This document shows, in pieces, positions 9,805-60,455 of a stretch of 64,000 bases of DNA. Positions within the stretch are counted from its first letter, which is position 1. Each line of letters starts with the position of its first letter. The position numbers were made by a program, and so were the translations under genes. The notes under the pieces were generated by a model. The model had not been told where the DNA came from, did not search any database, and worked only from the letters and a program-made list of their open reading frames with translations. Source of the stretch: Octopus sinensis (Eukaryota); the NCBI RefSeq assembly GCF_006345805.1, contig NC_042997.1:145080001-145144000 (forward strand), read 5' to 3'.

Positions 9805-12345
9805 TGTGTGTGTGTGGTGATATCATGAATGCGTGTGGTGATATCATGAATGTGTGTGGGGTGATATCATAAATGTGTGTGGTGATATCATGAATGTGTG
9901 AGGAGTGATATAATGAATGCGTGGGTGGTGATATCATGAATGTATGTGTGGCGATATCATGAATGTGTGTGTGGTATTATCATGAATGTGTGTGTGTGTG
10001 TGGTGATATCATGAATGTGTGTGGTGATATCATGAATGCTGTGTGTGGTGATATCATGAATGTGTGAGGAGTGATATCATGAATGCGTGGGTGGCGATAT
10101 CATGAATGTATGTGTGGCGATATCATGAATGTGTGTGTGATGATATCATGAATGTGTGTGTGTGGTGATATCATGAATGTGTGAGGAGGGATATCATGAA
10201 TGCGTGGGTGGTGATATCATGAATGTATGTGTGGCGATATCATGAATGTTGTGTGGTGATATCATGAATGTTTGTGTGTGTGGTGATATCATTGTATGTG
10301 TGTGTGGTGATATCATGAATGTATGTGTGGTGATATCATGAATGCGTGTGTGGTGTGATATGAATGACTGTGGTGTTGATATCATGAATGTGTGTGTGGT
10401 GATATCATGAATGTATGTGTGGTGATATCATGAATGCGTGTGTGGTGATATCATGAATGTGTGGGTGGTGATATCATGAATGTGTGGTGGTGATATCATG
10501 AATGCGGGTTTGGATATGATATTTATGAATGTTGTGAAGTGATATCATGAATGTGTGGGGTGATATCATGAATGTGTATGTGTGGTGATATCCTGAATGC
10601 GTGTGTGGTGATATCATGAATGCGTGTGGTGATATCATGAATGTGTGTGTGGCGATATCAATGAATGTGTGTGTGGTATTATCATGAATGTGTGTGTGTG
10701 TGTGGTGATATCATGAATGTGTGTGGTGATATCATGAATGTATGTGTGGTGATATCATGAATGTGTGAGGAGTGATATCATGAATGCGTGGGTGGCGATA
10801 TCATGAATGTATGTGTGGCGATATCATGAATGTGTGTGTGATGATATCATGAATGTGTATGTGTGGTGATATCATGAATGTGTGAGGAGGGATATCATGA
10901 ATGCGTGGGTGGTGATATCATGAATGTATGTGTGGCGATATCATGAATGTGTGTGTGGTGATATCATGAATGTGTGTGTGTGGTGATATCATGAATGTGT
11001 GTGTGGTGATATCATGAATGTATGTGTGGTGATATCATGAATGCGTGTGTGGTGATATCATGAATGACTGTGTGGTGATATCATGAATGTGTGTGTGGTG
11101 ATATCATGAACGTATGTGTGGTGATATCATGAATGCGTGTGTGGTGATATCATGAATGTGTGGGTGGTGATATCATGAATGTGTGTGGTGATATCATGAA
11201 TGCGGGTTTGGTGATATTATGAATGTGTGTGAAGTGATATCATGAATGTGTGGGGTGATATCATGAATGTGTATGTGTGGTGATATCCTGAATGCGTGTG
11301 TGGTGATATCATGAATGCGTGTGGGTGATATCATGAATGTGTGTGTGTGGTGATATCATGAATGTGTGTGGTGATATCATGAATGTATGTGTGGTGATAT
11401 CATGAATGTGTGAGGAGTGATATCATGAATGCGTGGGTGGCGATATCATGAATGTATGTGTGGCGATATCATGAATGTGTGTGTGATGATATCATGAATG
11501 TGTGTGTGTGGTGATATCATGAATGTGTGAGGAGGGATATCATGAATGCGTGGGTGGTGATATCATGAATGTATGTGTGGCGATATCATGAATGTGTGTG
11601 TGGTGATATCATGAATGTGTGTGTGGTGATATCATGAATGTGTGTGTGGTGATATCATGAATGTATGTGTGGTGATATCATGAATGCGTGTGTGGTGATA
11701 TCATGAATGACTGTGTGGTGATATCATGAATGTGTGTGTGGTGATATCATGAATGTATGTGTGGTGATATCATGAATGCGTGTGTGGTGATATCATGAAT
11801 GTGTGGGTGGTGATATCATGAATGTGTGTGGTGATATCATGAATGCGGGTTTGGTGATATTATGAATGTGTGTGAAGTGATATCATGAATGTGTGGGGTG
11901 ATATCATGAATGTGTATGTGTGGTGATATCCTGAATGCGTGTGTGGTGATATCATGAATGCGTGTGGGTGATATCATGAATGTGTGTGTGTGGTGATATC
12001 ATGAATATGTGTGGTGATATCCTGAATGCGTGTCTGGTGATATTATGAATGTGTGTGAAGTGATATCATGAATGTGTATGTGTGGTGATATCCTGAATGC
12101 GTGTGTGGTGATATCATGAATGTGTGTATGGTGATATCAAGAGAGTGTGTGTGTGGTGATATCATGAATGTGTATGTGGGGAATCATGAATGCGTGTGTG
12201 GTGATATCATGAATGTGTGTGTGGTGATATGAATGTGTGTGGGGTGATATCATGAATGTGTGTGTGGTGATATCATGAATGTGTGTGTAGTGATATCATG
12301 AATGTGTGTGGAGTGATATCATGAATGTGTGTGTGGTGATATCAT
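9805..12345. repeat. Minisatellite, ~21-28 bp monomer gtgg-TGATATCATGAAT-g(tg)n, with a ~640-700 bp higher-order period
   Basis: About 100 copies of the constant core; the rare variant gcgggtttgg recurs at 10504, 11202 and 11845. Confidence 0.95.
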
Positions 12346-14075: not shown

Positions 14076-15339
14076 AGTTGTGAACTGAATCGATTCAGTT
14101 ATATTAACGACGAAAGTGGATTTGTGACAACAGAAAATGGAACCTTGACCGAAGCTTTCTGTCTCCTGGAGTTTAATTCTTAGTTCGCAATATTCATAGA
14201 GAAAATAAATACAGCGCTACTTTCTGGTATCACTATAAGAACAGCAACTAAATCAATCCCATACATAACTGTTCGTGATTTTGTCCATCACAAGTGTGCG
14301 CATGTGTAAGTAATTTTCATTTCACTCTTTTCTTCGTTTCATTTTTTTTTTTACTTCCTTTAATGCCTTTCTTTCTTTCTTTCTTCCTCCCTTCTTTCCT
14401 TTATTTATTTTGATCTATTTGGATCCCAAAAAAACAGATTTCAGTATTTTGCTCTGAAGTAGCATAGCGCCATTAGTTAAATACGAACAGACGACACTCG
14501 AAAAACAAAACGAAAACAAAAGCAAAATGGTAAAACAGAAACATTATCAATTCGGTCTTTACAATTTCATTCTCAGACACAATGTATAAACCAGTCGAAT
14601 TGTTACGAGAGTCCTAGAGTAGAAGGTAAACACTCTGGGCAAACTGAAACCGAAAGTCGCTCTCGGATCTCGACATAAAAAAAAAGTGCTTGAACGTTAT
14701 AGTATTCTTTAATTGTCTCCCTTATCGAAAGCCGGTTTAGATTCTCAACTGAAGCGACCATCTTAATTCCTTTAAAAAGAAATAAAAAGACATGGATACC
14801 ACAGCATTATATAATTGTCTTCTCTTTTTGAAAAGTAGATTTTGATTCCCGGTTGAATCTGCCATCGTAATTCCTTTAAAAAGAAATAAAACGGCATGAC
14901 CATCACAACATCCTATCATTGTTTCCCTATTATATTCTTACGATTTCATACTGAAGTCAAAAGTCAATATTGAATTCTCAACCAACAAAAATGAGTGAGC
15001 AAATAAATAAGTACATAAATTTTTAAAAAATAAATGTCTTTGAAATAAATGAAAATGATTTGTCGAACCTACTTGGCAGGTTTGGTTTCTTTCGTTTTGG
15101 CACATTATTCTGCAGTAATTCAAAATTTCTGTGTTGCTGAATTAAAATCTATTATAGTATTTGAAAATTGATTTTTCTCTTTAGCTCGAAGCTATTACTA
15201 TTTTTACAACAAATCATACTGCCTTAGTTTAATCACATGCGTCTTTGTTTTAAACGGATTTGCACTGTTGTGCATTTTTGTTTTTTTCTAAAAAAGAAAA
15301 CTGTGCATCGTCGTCGTCATCATCATCATCAGCACTATC

Positions 15340-17760
15340 ATCATCATCATCGTTGTCGCCGTCGTCGTCGTCGTCATTATCATCACCACCACCAACAACA
15401 ACAACATCACTACCACCAACACCTACAAAACCACCATCACCATTATCATCATCATCATCATCGCCAACATCAATGTTATTATGACTAGGCGCAGGCATGG
15501 CTATGTGGTTAAGAAGCTAGCATTGCAACCGCGTGGTTTCGGGTTCAACCCCACTACGCGGCACCTTGTGCAAGTGTCTTCTACTACAGCCTCGGGTCGA
15601 CCAAATCCTTGTGAAAGAATTCGGTGAATGGAAACTGTGTGGAAGTCTGTCGTGTATACGTGTGTGCGTATATGTCTGTGTGTCTTTCTGTCTGCTTTTG
15701 TTCCACCACCACCACCACTTAACAAACGGTATTGGTTTGCTTGTGTCCCCATAACTTAAAAGTTTGGCAATAAAGACAGGTAAAATAAGCTTCGTTCGAC
15801 TAAAAGCCTTCAAGGCGATGCCCCAGCATGGTCGCAGTCCAATGACTGAACCAAGTAAAAGATAAAGTTTACCAGCACCAATAACTCCACCACCACTACC
15901 AACACCGACATAGGCCTTCAAATCAGAGGCGGGAGTGGGGTGGAAGCTGCCACATCCCAACTCACATTCAAACTCGATTGTGGGGAAAATTCGGGCAAAA
16001 GCAAGAAAATAAACAATCGTCGGACAGTGAAAAGAAAAACAAATGGAAAAAAAATTACAGATCAGCAATTACGGGAAATGAATTTAGACAACCAAAATCA
16101 TAAAAAAAAAAACAACCCATCTAAAATTTGTACCGATCATCATCATCATCATCGTCGCCGTCGTCGTCGTCGTCATTATCATCACCACCACCAACAACAA
16201 CAACATCACTACCACCAACACCTACAAAACCACCATCACCATTATCATCATCATCATCGCCAACATCAATGTTATTATGACTAGGCGCAGGCATGGCTAT
16301 GTGGTTAAGAAGCTAGCATTGCAACCGCGTGGTTTCGGGTTCAACCCCACTACGCGGCACCTTGTGCAAGTGTCTTCTACTACAGCCTCGGGTCGACCAA
16401 ATCCTTGTGAAAGAATTCGGTGAATGGAAACTGTGTGGAAGTCTGTCGTGTATACGTGTGTGCGTATATGTCTGTGTGTCTTTCTGTCTGCTTTTGTTCC
16501 ACCACCACCACCACTTAACAAACGGTATTGGTTTGCTTGTGTCCCCATAACTTAAAAGTTTGGCAATAAAGACAGGTAAAATAAGCTTCGTTCGACTAAA
16601 AGCCTTCAAGGCGATGCCCCAGCATGGTCGCAGTCCAATGACTGAACCAAGTAAAAGATAAAGTTTACCAGCACCAATAACTCCACCACCACTACCAACA
16701 CCGACATAGGCCTTCAAATCAGAGGCGGGAGTGGGGTGGAAGCTGCCACATCCCAACTCACATTCAAACTCGATTGTGGGGAAAATTCGGGCAAAAGCAA
16801 GAAAATAAACAATCGTCGGACAGTGAAAAGAAAAACAAATGGAAAAAAAATTACAGATCAGCAATTACGGGAAATGAATTTAGACAACCAAAATCATAAA
16901 AAAAAAAACAACCCATCTAAAATTTGTACCGATCATCATCATCATCATCGTCGCCGTCGTCGTCGTCGTCATTATCATCACCACCACCAACAACAACAAC
17001 ATCACTACCACCAACACCTACAAAACCACCATCACCATTATCATCATCATCATCGCCAACATCAATGTTATTATGACTAGGCGCAGGCATGGCTATGTGG
17101 TTAAGAAGCTAGCATTGCAACCGCGTGGTTTCGGGTTCAACCCCACTACGCGGCACCTTGTGCAAGTGTCTTCTACTACAGCCTCGGGTCGACCAAATCC
17201 TTGTGAAAGAATTCGGTGAATGGAAACTGTGTGGAAGTCTGTCGTGTATACGTGTGTGCGTATATGTCTGTGTCTTTCTGTCTGCTTTTGTTCCACCACC
17301 ACCACCACTTAACAAACGGTATTGGTTTGCTTGTGTCCCCATAACTTAAAAGTTTGGCAATAAAGACAGGTAAAATAAGCTTCGTTCGACTAAAAGCCTT
17401 CAAGGCGATGCCCCAGCATGGTCGCAGTCCAATGACTGAACCAAGTAAAAGATAAAGTTTACCAGCACCAATAACTCCACCACCACCACCACCTCTACCA
17501 CCACTACCAACACCGACATAGGCCTTCAAATCAGAGGCGGGAGTGGGGTGGAAGCTGCCACACCCCAACTCACATTCAAACTCGATTGTGGGGAAAATTC
17601 GGGCAAAAGCAAGAAAATAAACAATCGTCGGACAGTGAAAAGAAAAACAAATGGAAAAAAAATTACAGATCAGCAATTACGGGAAATGAATTTAGACAAC
17701 CAAAATCATAAAAAAAAACAACCCATCTAAAATTTGTACCGATCATCATTATCATCATCG
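15340..17760. repeat. Tandem triplication of a ~796-bp unit containing a family A SINE (15487, 16283, 17079)
   Basis: ORF track repeats at +796 (15501/16297/17093); copies 1 and 2 look identical, copy 3 has small indels and a SNP. Confidence 0.95.
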
Positions 17761-17978: not shown

Positions 17979-18310
17979 TTTTAGAGACACGTTGTCATCT
18001 GCCGGTATTGATACACCAATTAGAAAGCATTTTTTTTCTTCATGATCTCTGACAACTATATCTGGTCTGTTGGCCTTAATTTCTCTATCTGTGTGTATCG
18101 ACATATCCCAGAGTATGGTTGCTTTCTCGTTTTCTGTGACCTTTTCTGGTGTGTGCCTATACCATCTTTTTTCTGTTGTTATTCCATAATGTTGGCATAG
18201 CTTCCAGTGTATGTAAGTTCCAACTCTGTCATGTCTGTGAATATATTCCTTCTTAGCCAGGACTAATAATTTATTATTATTATTATTATTATATTATTAT
18301 TATTATTATT

Positions 18311-18402
<92 letters not shown>

Positions 18403-19048
18403 CATTATTATTATTATTATTATTATTATTCATTAGTTTTATTTTTATAGTGTGCTTTCACTTCACTACCGAGCGCAGCTCTGTGTGCCTTGGGTATGTG
18501 CTGTGATTTGTTGTGATGCTCTGGTGGTTATTGTATGGAAAGTGTTCTGCGTAGGATGTGTGCAGTGCCTAGTAGTGCAATTTTCTGTATGTTATATGTG
18601 TTTGTAAGTCCTGGTGTTTTTGTTATGTATTTGTCTGAATATTTTTTTATCATGCCTAATGCACCTACTATGATAGGAATTGTTTCTGTTTTTAGATTCC
18701 ACATTCTGGTTACCTCTATTTCCAGGTCTTTGCATTTTGAAAGTTTCTCCATTTCTTTTAGAGACACGTTGTCATCTGCCGGTATTGATACATCAATTAG
18801 AAAGCATTTTTTTTTCATGATCTCTGACAACTATATCTGGTCTGTTGGCCTTAATTTCTCTATCTGTGTGTATCGGCATATCCCAGAGTATGGTTGCTTT
18901 CTCGTTTTCTGTGACCTTTTCTGATGTGTGCCTATACCATCTTTTTTCTGTTGTTATTCCATAATGTTGGCATAGCTTCCAGTATATGTAGGTTCCAACT
19001 CTGTCATATCTGTGAATATATTCCTTCTTAACCAGGACTAATAATTTA

Positions 19049-19131
<83 letters not shown>

Positions 19132-19176
19132 GTTGTTGTTGTTGTTATTATTATTATCATTATTATTATATTATTA

Positions 19177-19214
<38 letters not shown>

Positions 19215-19820
19215 TTAGTTTTATTTTATAGTGTGCTTTCACTTCACTACCGACGCAGCTCTGTGTGCCTTGGGTATGTGCTGTGATTTGTGTGATGCTC
19301 TGGTGGTTATTGTATGGAAAGTGTTCTGCGTAGGATGTGTGCAGTGCCTAGTAGTGCAATTTTCTGTATGTTATATGTGTTTGTAAGTCCTGGTGTTTTT
19401 GTTATGTATTTGTCTGAATATTTTTTTATCATGCCTAATGCACCTACTATGATAGGAATTGTTTCTGTTTTTAGATTCCACATTCTGGTTACCTCTATTT
19501 CCAGGTCTTTGCATTTTGAAAGTTTCTCCATTTCTTTTAGAGACACGTTTCATCTGCCGGTATTGATACATCAATTAGAAAGCATATTTTTTTTCATGAT
19601 CTCTGACAACTATATCTGGTCTGTTGGCCTTAATTTCTCTATCTGTGTGTATCGGCATATCCCAGAGTATGGTTGCTTTCTCGTTTTCTGTGACCTTTTC
19701 TGATGTGTGCCTATACCATCTTTTTTCTGTTGTTATTCCATAATGTTGGCATAGCTTCCAGTATATGTAGGTTCCAACTCTGTCATATCTGTGAATATAT
19801 TCCTTCTTAACCAGGACTAA
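17979..19820 (-). mobile_element. Three tandem 5'-truncated R4/Dong-like LINE 3' ends (RLE domain) in (TAA)n/(CAA)n: 17979-18266 partial, 18432-19040, 19212-19820
   Basis: Peptide 'RPDIVV...CFLIDVSIPADDNVSLKEMEKLSK.KDLEIEVTRMW.LKTETIPIIVGALG' is a PD-(D/E)xK restriction-like endonuclease; the 3' end runs into TAA repeats, the known Dong target. Confidence 0.9.
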
Positions 19821-19836
19821 TAATTTATTATTATTA

Positions 19837-19874
<38 letters not shown>

Positions 19875-19929
19875 GTTGTTGTTGTTGTTGTTGTTGTTGT
19901 TCTTGTTCTTGTTCTTGTTCTTGTTGTTG

Positions 19930-19984
<55 letters not shown>

Positions 19985-19998
19985 CAACATTATTAATA

Positions 19999-20640
19999 AG
20001 GCGGCAAGCTGGTAGAATCTTTAGAACGGCAGGCGAAATGCTTAGCGGTTTTTCGTCTGCCGTTACGTTCTTAGTTCAAATTCCGCCGAAGTCGAGTTTG
20101 CCTTTCATCCTTTCGGGGTCGATGAATTAAGTACCAGTTACGCACTGGGTCGATGTAATCGACTTAATCCGTTTGTCTGTCCTTGTTTGTCCTCTCTGTG
20201 TTTAGCCCCTTGTGGGTAGTAAAGAAATAGGTATTTCGTCTGTGCTACGTTCTGAGTTCAAATTCCGCCGAGGTCAACTTTGCCTTTCATCATTTCAGGG
20301 TCGATAAATTAAGTACCAGTGAAACACTGGGATCGATGTAATCAACTAGTCCCCTACCCCAAATTTCAGGCCTTGTGCCTATAGTAGAAAGGATTATTAT
20401 CAATATCAACATTATCATTATTAAGGCGGCAAGCTGGCAGAATTGTTAGCACGACGGGTAAACGCCTTGTGACATTCTGTCTGTCACCACATTCTGAGTT
20501 CTAATTCCGCCGAGGTTGACTTTAACTTTCGTCCTCTCGGAATCGATAAACTAAGTACCTATTGAGCACTGAATTCGATGTAACAGAGTTGCTTCTACCC
20601 CCGAATTTACTGGACTCGTGCCAAAATTTGAAACCATAAT
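19999..20640 (+). mobile_element. SINE family B cluster (internally duplicated copy 19999-20400, second copy 20424-20640)
   Basis: ggcggcaagctggcagaa..ttag; gagttcaaattccgccgaggtcgactttgcctttcatcctttcggggtcgataaattaagtaccag (Meta-domain-like from memory). Confidence 0.85.
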
Positions 20641-46972: not shown

Positions 46973-48210
46973 ATGGGTTGGCAAGAAGGTAATTTCGTTT
47001 TCCGCAAATAGATTGAGTAACGATTTTTTTAATGACTTTTGTCAATGTTATAATTTCTTTTTTCCTTTTAGAATTTAAAAGTGATTACTTTTAGCTTACT
47101 TTAGAAGCAAATTGCGTGTAATTTTGCTTATAACTGTTAATTTAGTTTTACATGAAGTGCAAAATGAACATTTTCGCTATATTTTGCTTTATTTTATTTC
47201 CGTAAAGGTAAGAAAGCTGCTGAGGATCACAAAGAGATGTGTGAAGTTTATGGTGTTAATTGCCTAACAGAATACACAAGTCAGAAATGGTTTTTAAAAT
47301 TCCGTTCTGAAGATTTTTCACTCAAAGATGACCAACGTTCTGGGCGACCTACAGAAGTTGATGATGACCAATTAAAAACTATAATTGAATCTGATTGTCA
47401 TATAACTGTGTGAGAGATTGCGGTAGGTAAATGTATCACACACACAGCAATTGAAAATCATTTAACATGTCTTGGACTCGTTAAGAAGCACGATATTTGG
47501 GTTCCACATAAACTGAAAGCGATTCACTTAACACAATGAATCAGTATTTGAGATATGCATCTCAAACGCAATGAAATTGACCTTTTTTTAAACGAATCAT
47601 CACTGGTGATGAAAAATGGATTGTCTACAATAACATCAGTCGAAAACGATCATACTACAAGCGTAATGAACGAGCACAAACCACATCGAATGTTGAACTG
47701 CATCAAAAAAGGTCATACTATCAATTTGGTGGGATTACAAAAGTGTTGTGAATTTTGAGCTGCTTCCAAGGAACCAAACAATCAATTCAGATGTTTACTG
47801 TCAACAACTAATGAAACGGGAGGAAGCATTCAAGGAAAAACGGTCAAAATTAGCAAATCGTAAAGGAATTGTGCTCCACCATGACAACGCTTGACCACAC
47901 ACGCCTTTGGTAACTCGAGAAAATTTTATTGGAGCTTGGTTGGGAAGTGATGGCACATCCACTATATAGCCCTGACCGTGCCCATCAGATTACCATTTAC
48001 TCTTTTTGCTCTTTTACTTGTTTCAGTCATTTGACTGCGGCCATGCTAGAGCACCGCCTTTAATCGAGCAACTCGACCCCGGGACTTATTCTTTTGTAAG
48101 CCCAGTACTTATTCTATCGGTCTCTTTTGCCGAACCGCTAAGTAACGGGGACATAAACACACCAGCATTGGTTGTCAAGCAATGCTAGGGGAACAAACAC
48201 AGACACACAA

Positions 48211-56342: not shown

Positions 56343-56572
56343 CAACAACAACAACAACAAACAATAATAATAATAATAATCATAATAATAATAACATCGA
56401 AAAAATACCTTAGGAATGAGAACCCAGTTTCGAAATTTCCCCCAACACACCTGATGAAGGCTGGAGGGTATATCAGCCGAAACGTTGTGTTAACAACAAA
56501 CAAGATGAGGACAAATATCCGTCAAATGTAAATAATGTAAATAATGTACATAATTCCTCATCTCTTAAATAG
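56210..56572 (+). mobile_element. tRNA-like-head element containing a hammerhead ribozyme
   Basis: Head gggtatattgcgtagtggttaagagcgcgggctactaaccccaagattccgagttcaattcc (A/B boxes, anticodon-like arm ggg-ctactaa-ccc), (AAT)n linker, HHR, tail (gtaaataat)n; inverted head fragment at 56210-56233. Confidence 0.75.
56447..56490 (+). ncRNA. Minimal type-I hammerhead ribozyme, intact core
   Basis: acac CTGATGA a ggctg gagggtatat cagcc GAAAC GTT gtgt; loopless self-complementary AACGTT stem III. Confidence 0.85.
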
Positions 56573-58858: not shown

Positions 58859-59424
58859 TCAGTGACGATTCACATGTCACCGTCCATCTTCCTTTTCCGC
58901 CTGATCGTCGACTCGTTCAGTCACGCATCTTTTGTCTCCTTTTTTACATTCAACACAGTTTTTTTGTTTTGTTTTGTTTTGTTTTGCTTTGTTTTTCACC
59001 GTTCGTTTATTTTCACTTTTCATCCAATCCTTCCATCTATCCACTTTCTAGTCCTTTAGGAAAATTTCCATTGCGTTATTATACATTTTTCTTGTTTCAA
59101 ACTGCAAGGCCTTTATTTTCTTTGTATAGAGTGTATTTACTTTGTTTACGTATTCACATTTATGTATCGCAATTGTTTTGTCACCAAAATTAACAATATT
59201 ATCATTGAAGGCGTGAAGTTGCAATGATTATTTTTTGGACGATGACTGACGAGGAAAGAGCACATCCATTTCTTGCTTTCGTTCCTTTGTCGAGCTTCTG
59301 CTTAATTGTTGAAACTTACATACATACATACATACATACATAATACATACATACATACATACATACATACAAACATCATGTATATATATATATTAATATA
59401 TATATATATAATATTGATATATAG

Positions 59425-59515
<91 letters not shown>

Positions 59516-59713
59516 TATATATATTATATATATATATCTTTATAAACAAAGTTAAATGCGATACAATAAAATTAATATAATCGCCGGTGTACCAGTACAC
59601 GCCATATATTATTCATATATAAATTACATTCAAGGCGAAGTGTGCACTAGATACACAAAAGCGGAATAAATTTAGTGAGATGAAAATTTAAAACTTTTAA
59701 CAAACTTAGCTTT

Positions 59714-59784
59714 TCTTATACTGCAGTTTCGCCAAATCAGTAAAAAAATAATATTTATTTACTCAGGCTGGCTCTTCAGTAAGA
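59714..59784 (-). ncRNA. Type-I hammerhead ribozyme, fully canonical
   Basis: Minus: tctta CTGAAGA gcca...agtaaa..tttact..tggc GAAAC tgca GTA taaga; 5-bp stem I, G10.1-C11.1 pair, palindromic CTGCAG. Confidence 0.9.
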
Positions 59785-59861
59785 TTCCTGTTAATTATGG
59801 GAAGACCCCATATCAATAGACCCATATTATATATATATATAATATATATATCTTATATATA

Positions 59862-59895
<34 letters not shown>

Positions 59896-60455
59896 TATCA
59901 TACATATATATATATATATATTATATATATATATATATATTATATATATATATATATAATATATATATGTATGTATATATTATATATATATATATAATAT
60001 GGTCCGTGCAACATCGATATTCTTCCCTATGTCTGTGAAATAATTGTATCTCTGCCGTGAGGCTTCATTTCCCCCACGCGCCGGCTTAATTATTCAATTC
60101 GTCCCCAGTGGAAAGACACCTGTTGTTATGTCCTGTTATTATTTTTATCGTATTTATATTGTATTTATATTTGTGTAACATTGTCTGTTTTTCCGTCCTT
60201 GTTTTTGTATACATTCGATGCTTTCTTCCAAGGAATCTAATGCTCTTAGCTTAGTTTTTCCTTGGGGTTGGCCAGATTAGAGCAATCTCAAGATTAATCA
60301 GCCGAAATTGCGATGATGATCTGGTTCTTGACTGAGGATAGAAAGCTTCGAATGACCCGTCCTTGTTTATTTTTGTATCGTCTATCTGGATGTTTTGTTG
60401 TCCCTTTTTGTATCACCTAGTTGTCCGGATGTTTTGCGTTCTTGTCCAATTTTGC

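Follow-up and report, generated by a model that had tools for sequence, protein, structure and literature searches.

A hammerhead motif between (TA)n tracts of the Octopus sinensis genome probably belongs to a truncated copy of a non-LTR retrozyme family copied from circles by a Penelope-type enzyme

The 64,000-nucleotide stretch of Octopus sinensis DNA analyzed here (contig NC_042997.1, positions 145,080,001 to 145,144,000; hereafter the window) carries on its minus strand, between two (TA)n tracts, a type I hammerhead ribozyme motif that probably belongs to a truncated copy of a non-LTR retrozyme family, inserted in TA repeats and copied from circles by a Penelope-type enzyme. The window locus is an ordinary truncated copy and the family is the more informative object: its hundreds of young insertions yield a mapped priming site together with the target and the distribution of lengths, and point to a candidate helper whose frames are open; circle-templated insertion is therefore directly testable. 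The features of the locus are collected in Table 1.

Table 1. Features of the hammerhead locus (positions are those of the window)
Feature	Positions	Strand	Description
Type I hammerhead ribozyme motif	59714..59784	-	sequence match to core and stems; covariation
Stem I, 5' strand	59780..59784	-	TCTTA; 5 bp with TAAGA
Core CUGANGA box	59773..59779	-	CTGAAGA here; relatives have A, T or C at N7
Long stem II, 42 nt	59731..59772	-	GCCAG/TTGGC, internal loop, AU-rich distal hairpin AGTAAA/TTTACT
GAAA box, 1-bp stem III and GUA triplet	59719..59730	-	palindromic UGCA loop
GAAA	59730-59727	-	within the segment of the preceding row
Palindrome CTGCAG	59726-59721	-	stem III as one C-G pair with palindromic tetraloop
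Stem I, 3' strand	59714..59718	-	TAAGA; pairs with TCTTA
5'-truncated solo copy of the 404-bp unit (probable retrozyme)	59544..59825	-	unit positions 124-404; 0.70 unit; 282 bp; 31% GC
Fixed family 3' end	59544..59550	-	TTTGTTT; 174 nt past the cut; putative reverse-transcription start
(TA)n microsatellite, element's 3' side	59320..59543	.	array 59320-59537; putative insertion target
(TA)n microsatellite, element's 5' side	59826..60000	.	array 59824-60000

The motif has the parts of a type I hammerhead: the CUGANGA and GAAA boxes, an NUH triplet, and three stems with stem I open. A preliminary description of this DNA had recognized the hammerhead and its cut site, and we located everything it listed (the conserved core, a 5-bp stem I, a stem II closed by G-C and extended by agtaaa/tttact, the GUA triplet and the CTGCAG palindrome); covariation across subfamilies, described below, backs the fold. 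Cleavage is predicted on the minus strand between 59719 and 59718, that is, after position 230 of the family's repeat unit. A strict hammerhead descriptor has a single match in the window, at 59784-59714, and none in 200 order-2 Markov resamples of the window. An Rfam scan of the hammerhead gave no match at the gathering score or at E<=10; a stem II of 42 nt is possibly too long for the models.

The same preliminary description took positions 59535-59825 for a unique island, a view refuted by hundreds of copies genome-wide; its first nine bases (59535-59543) are flank. A search with this 291-bp island returned 1099 candidates in the 2.72-Gb genome, and the 40 that were scored comprise the window and 39 others at 93-97% identity. 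A 24-base core has 295 exact matches genome-wide (reversed control, 0), and a looser core pattern finds 464 related cores (control, 0). The repeat unit is 404 bp long with 34% GC and is non-coding, with at most 85 aa between stops; inspection by eye shows neither an LTR nor a primer-binding site or polypurine tract in it. Units form head-to-tail arrays in (TA)n of up to 8.8 (about 9) units, with a hammerhead in each, and the copies sit on many contigs with differing flanks. Diverged subfamilies (L204-L223, 70-88% identity) retain the 3' end region and the TA target; one of them has GUC in place of GUA, and L213 ends in (AC)n. Separately, a GUU cleavage triplet occurs in L109 and L028, and both L109 units carry GUU together with a second private change. 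With head-to-tail repeats within about 150-450 bp, GC below 50% and Penelope-like elements present in the genome, the family has the sequence characteristics of retrozymes, and on these grounds we consider it very probably a non-LTR retrozyme.

The window copy is 96% identical to its nearest relatives (L002/L005), from which it differs by about 1.5% substitutions and several indels of 1-2 nt; two private 1-nt deletions in its stem II are possibly assembly errors. Neither the rest of the 64-kb window nor 100 kb of its flanks hold a second unit; arrays elsewhere carry up to nine hammerheads, and some of their units are substitution-free. With 0.70 unit and a single hammerhead, the window copy lies outside the active-locus criterion of Li et al. 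(bioRxiv 10.64898/2026.07.22.740005), for which 23 of the 88 family elements sampled have sufficient length, and also below their 80%-length criterion. Having one hammerhead, no partner and no full unit, it is, judged from its sequence, most likely an inert product and probably a dead end. Because of the 1-bp stem III and the lack of a partner hammerhead nearby, it is a poor candidate for activity, predicted to cut poorly and to release no unit circle.

The locus had nevertheless been put forward as the best candidate for present-day activity, cutting a host intron. Genome-wide, the first claim found no support for this solo copy with a weak stem III and two private stem II deletions, and neither did the second: Pfam searches of 150 of the 157 window frames (>=62 aa) and 122 of the 184 flank frames, from which short exons would escape, detected no host gene or exon and matched only mariner and reverse transcriptase remnants. 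That the locus holds a one-of-a-kind ribozyme, active today and cutting a host transcript of the minus strand, is accordingly highly improbable. Its core nucleotides are intact at the low divergence given above, and two RNAs, each with a minimal hammerhead, can dimerize and cut in trans; but the unit is one of hundreds, solo and truncated, no host exon lies in the scanned frames, and its 1-bp stem III resembles that of HHR_Amex1 of axolotl, a slow ribozyme as a monomer (6% cut in an hour; PMC7229834, in the part cited).

Whether the fold is maintained was judged from 18 hand-picked copies: the window, three close copies and 14 of 20 diverged loci (L207, L210, L211, L212, L216 and L219 were omitted, L207 and L219 having a stem I mismatch). 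The hammerhead structure pairs in 89.9% of cells, against 32-46% for slid controls, a control that ignores relatedness. Two-sided, compensatory changes occur at 5 of 21 stem pairs, including C-G/U-A and U-A/A-U swaps in stem II and an A-U/G-C swap at the core-proximal pair of stem I in four copies; the proximal pairs of stem II are preserved in 18/18, and stem III is invariant and therefore gives no covariation signal. In these hammerheads A, T and C all occur at N7, and either A or C occupies the cleavage position; the hammerhead core leaves both positions free. Together, the compensatory changes and the free N7 point to selection on the hammerhead fold. The internal loop of stem II is retained, and in distal stem I two of four pairs fail in 12-13 of the 18 copies; a longer distal stem I was considered for the window's subfamily and proved weak, with poor pairing in the aligned copies. 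No loop 1-loop 2 contacts of the kind reported for HHR_Amex1 were identified in the family hammerhead. That the motif arose by chance or by misassembly has a negligible probability: the DNA is AT-rich and repeat-rich, Rfam is blank and a 101-nt fold at the locus is ordinary (z -0.96), but against this stand the empty resampled windows, the conserved core and compensatory stems of diverged subfamilies, and copies scattered over contigs with different flanks.

The energetics bear on how such a hammerhead could act. Stem III is computed at +2.9 kcal/mol as a hairpin versus -11.1 kcal/mol as a duplex of two palindromes, and the window hammerhead is therefore predicted to be likely dimer-dependent; a 1-bp stem III with a palindromic loop is described as a dimer-dependent layout in the cited parts of PMC4209133 and PMC7229834. 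In nearest-neighbor folding the hammerhead fold lies 6-8 kcal/mol above the free minimum in the window copy and in a young unit alike, and its thermodynamic probability (about 1e-6) does not separate the two; in RNAalifold the core CUG pairs with the CAG of the palindrome rather than forming the hammerhead stems. The more stable alternative fold named in the preliminary description as contrary evidence thus exists as a computed minimum, in energy models that omit the core contacts, and the family hammerhead may take an inactive fold.

The anatomy of the insertions was read from two samples: 40 element clusters at 38 hammerhead-picked loci (drawn from among the first 100 core matches, out of 295), and 88 exact 3' ends on contigs C1-C7, out of 181 genome-wide. 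The 3' end is fixed: 34 of the 40 clusters end at unit position 404 and 37 at 399-404, the exceptions being L048 (which ends at 343) and two arms of L058/L180. A downstream TA run exceeds the 0.75 threshold in 35/40, with three more at 0.70-0.74. In the 3'-end sample the 5' ends are variable, element lengths range from 25 to 3566 bp (38/88 longer than one unit), and a TA run adjoins the 5' junction in 64 elements; no target-site duplication is readable within TA. Each insertion's terminus alternates between unit letters and target letters. In the subfamily with an internal ACGTAT junction (n=43, a hand count of 78 rows) 18 termini read ACGTAT, 17 ATAT and eight ACA/ATG; in ACATAT subfamilies (n=88) eight read ACATAT and 80 ATATAT, in a search pattern that allowed these two only. 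This mixing of unit and target letters is as expected if the target anneals at a site internal to the template.

What the template was can be narrowed by the behavior at the cut. None of the 49 elements that reach the first cut site stop there, and over all rounds 2 of 122 arrivals do (L135, L109), against 1.2 expected (P=0.36); in the absence of a pile-up, the template was therefore not a cut linear monomer. Among units that cross the cut, the indel rate at the cut-site junction is 0.0039, compared with 0.0060 per base overall, which argues against sloppy end-to-end jumps. Arrays are also internally uniform: in 26 arrays, substitution is 0.5% within and 3.2% between arrays, 27 diagnostic columns give 683 fixed and six mixed array-by-column cells, and array-private alleles are present in 2/2, 3/3 and 4/4 units of their arrays. 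We think it fairly likely that the family is copied by a circle-templated route, although local homogenization could have produced the uniformity instead. Contigs from three of four runs guessed to be RNA bridge unit end to unit start (404-434 nt); tandem DNA yields an identical loop, and these contigs are therefore uninformative on expression or circles.

An unlikely alternative dispenses with circles: the template would be a linear, uncut read-through transcript of an array with an (AU)n tail, as in SINEs, and the hammerhead a slow or vestigial passenger. Uncut multimers would likewise leave copies that share one 3' end, are truncated at the 5' side and run past the cut, and by computation another fold is more stable than the hammerhead. 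The linear template does not, however, readily account for new variants being fixed across the units of an array rather than confined to one unit, an inherited tail poorly explains arrays with ACG junctions that end in either ACG or AT, and the compensatory changes and free N7 speak for a fold under selection.

One chimeric insertion bears on the same question in favor of linear copying. Locus L180 (4265-5945; G000:C3, about 162.24 Mb) holds a 1.68-kb palindromic insertion flanked by TA tracts, each arm of which consists of unit positions ~96-239, four stretches matching contig C4 in order (L234, L251, L235, L252; each with genomic AG before and GT after it), and the 144-nt 3' end of another repeat. 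The retrozyme portion stops at a GT roughly 8 nt beyond the cut site, with the hammerhead uncut; the terminal piece carries the hammerhead of a second repeat; and the left arm has an extra tail like that described for Penelope insertions in the cited part of PMC8557442. The joined sequence was considered as a degenerate GIY-YIG domain, which is ruled out by its mapping to four exons on C4, and the 135 kb upstream of these exons contain no retrozyme donor. The arrangement suggests, from its sequence, a retrocopy of spliced host RNA joined to the retrozyme via splicing or a template switch; as a single case, it could also be an assembly palindrome. An uncut hammerhead joined to spliced exons implies that uncut linear RNA may be copied too. 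The second repeat is itself young (L188-L203), has a short-stem-II hammerhead with a CAATTG palindrome and occurs mainly as inverted pairs of short 3' ends within TA tracts.

The preferred, circle-copied reading of the family calls for a helper, and the genome contains a candidate. A search for GIY-YIG frames gave at least 149 matches among 150 scored, from 5029 candidates, and these include near-identical 781-aa open frames with reverse transcriptase and GIY-YIG domains (RVT_1 slightly below its cut-off), whose CX4CX2C linker fits the Neptune/Nematis motif as cited from PMC8557442. The young Neptune-type Penelope-like family (L169-L175, L178, L183) has a ~1-kb 3' UTR ending in (AT)n, and in all seven copies compared with L169 the UTR stops at one point in (AT)n. 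Three UTRs scanned contain no canonical hammerhead, and the UTRs examined share no detectable sequence with the 404-bp unit. An exact-match look-up of four Penelope-like proteins in a protein collection returned nothing, and the 64-kb window has no Penelope protein match. None of the 88 upstream flanks has a Penelope frame abutting the element's 5' end; matches within 1200 nt occur in four flanks, three antisense and one about 800 nt away that shares no sequence. Given no shared sequence and no abutting frame, we propose the helper link from the common target and the manner of insertion. Inverted 5' copies, which the cited part of PMC8557442 treats as a hallmark of Penelope elements, are found in L180, L215 and L220; the 88 sampled elements show none within 250 nt upstream.

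It is very unlikely that the unit is instead the terminal repeat (pseudo-LTR) of an autonomous Penelope-like element whose truncated insertions are the copies described here. Xenopus retrozymes resemble Penelope terminal repeats (bioRxiv 10.64898/2026.07.22.740005, as cited in part), and both the TA target and the inverted 5' copies are in keeping with the biology of Penelope elements (PMC8557442, likewise). These likenesses are countered by the 88 elements without an abutting frame, by the fact that the upstream neighbor of one unit is the next unit, in phase, and by the Penelope side of the comparison: in 45 loci (the GIY-YIG loci and extensions, plus L180) the unit occurs only as separate copies, in L180 and L183.

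We therefore propose the following model for the retrozyme family. Arrays of at least two units would be transcribed; adjacent hammerheads, paired at the CUGCAG palindrome, would cleave after unit position 230; and a host ligase would close a 404-nt circle. A Penelope-like endonuclease would nick (TA)n, the target 3' end would anneal to ACAUAU at unit positions 1-6, and reverse transcriptase would run around the template and stop at random, leaving anything from 25 bp to about nine units; the window copy would be a case in which reverse transcription stopped after 282 nt. The full version of this account, in which the family records Neptune-type target-primed rolling-circle reverse transcription at ACAUAU for up to nine rounds, with the host RNA of L180 taken up by the same machinery, has in our judgment slightly better than even chances.

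Other features of the window and other hammerhead repeats were noted in passing. The window contains mariner transposase remnants (HTH_48, Transposase_1) at 47168-47891 on the plus strand, a 23-bp minisatellite of about 110 copies at 9807-12345, and local tandem duplications of ~800 bp, three copies each, at about 15300-17700 and at 18270-20000, the latter with retroelement-like coding remnants. At 56447-56491, plus strand, lies a minimal hammerhead-like motif of the Penelope terminal-repeat type (4-bp stem I, CTGATGA, 6-bp stem II, GAAACGTT). Further hammerhead families (L142, L171, L172, L174) have a long AT-rich stem II and a 6-nt palindromic stem III, with CTCGAG, CAATTG, CATGTG and CATATG among their palindromes.

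In open literature titles and the beginnings of abstracts, no hammerhead, retrozyme or ribozyme family is described from octopus or any cephalopod, and open literature listings hold no description of an insertion signature like this one; the family may already stand in the supplement of PMC7229834, in other supplements, in closed papers or in repeat libraries, since supplements and closed papers lie outside that scope. The comparisons that follow refer to the parts of the papers cited. With metazoan non-LTR retrozymes (PMC7229834; bioRxiv 10.64898/2026.07.22.740005) the family shares non-coding, low-GC, head-to-tail units with one type I hammerhead each, dispersed monomers together with multimers, and Penelope-like elements in the same genome; its 404-bp unit compares with 350-390 bp in mussel (PMC7229834). 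Its hammerhead resembles HHR_Amex1 of axolotl and newt in the 1-bp helix III, the palindromic tetraloop and the predicted need for a dimer, whereas HHR_Amex1 has conserved loop 1-loop 2 contacts (PMC7229834) and, in the window's subfamily, distal stem I pairs poorly. Among predicted Xenopus dimers, cleavage was seen in 1/9 (Li et al., bioRxiv 10.64898/2026.07.22.740005). Fixed 3' ends, 5' truncation, tandem and inverted copies and microsatellite targets are shared with the Penelope-like Neptune and Nematis elements (PMC4209133, PMC8557442), and a short stem I, long stem II and palindromic stem III with Penelope terminal-repeat hammerheads (PMC4209133); unlike Penelope elements, the family has no protein, and whole units repeat rather than forming a partial tandem around an ORF. 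From metazoan retrozymes it differs in its 42-nt stem II with an internal loop (a 4-bp helix II there) and in a circular unit that is predicted from sequence to be ordinarily stable (z -1.0, with 12 of 60 shuffles equally stable) rather than 'highly self-paired' (PMC7229834). Retrozyme circles have been proposed to be 'properly primed' and copied as multimers, with no priming site or helper named in the cited parts of PMC7229834 and PMC7761336 and, in the latter, no motif that indicates a helper, and Li, Clavereau and Pollet (bioRxiv 10.64898/2026.07.22.740005) concede that evidence on the life cycle is limited. The strict (TA)n targeting and the 3' end fixed 174 nt past the cut set the octopus family apart from the metazoan retrozymes of these accounts, and the proposed model, if true, would supply the priming and integration step that is still hypothetical in the retrozyme papers.
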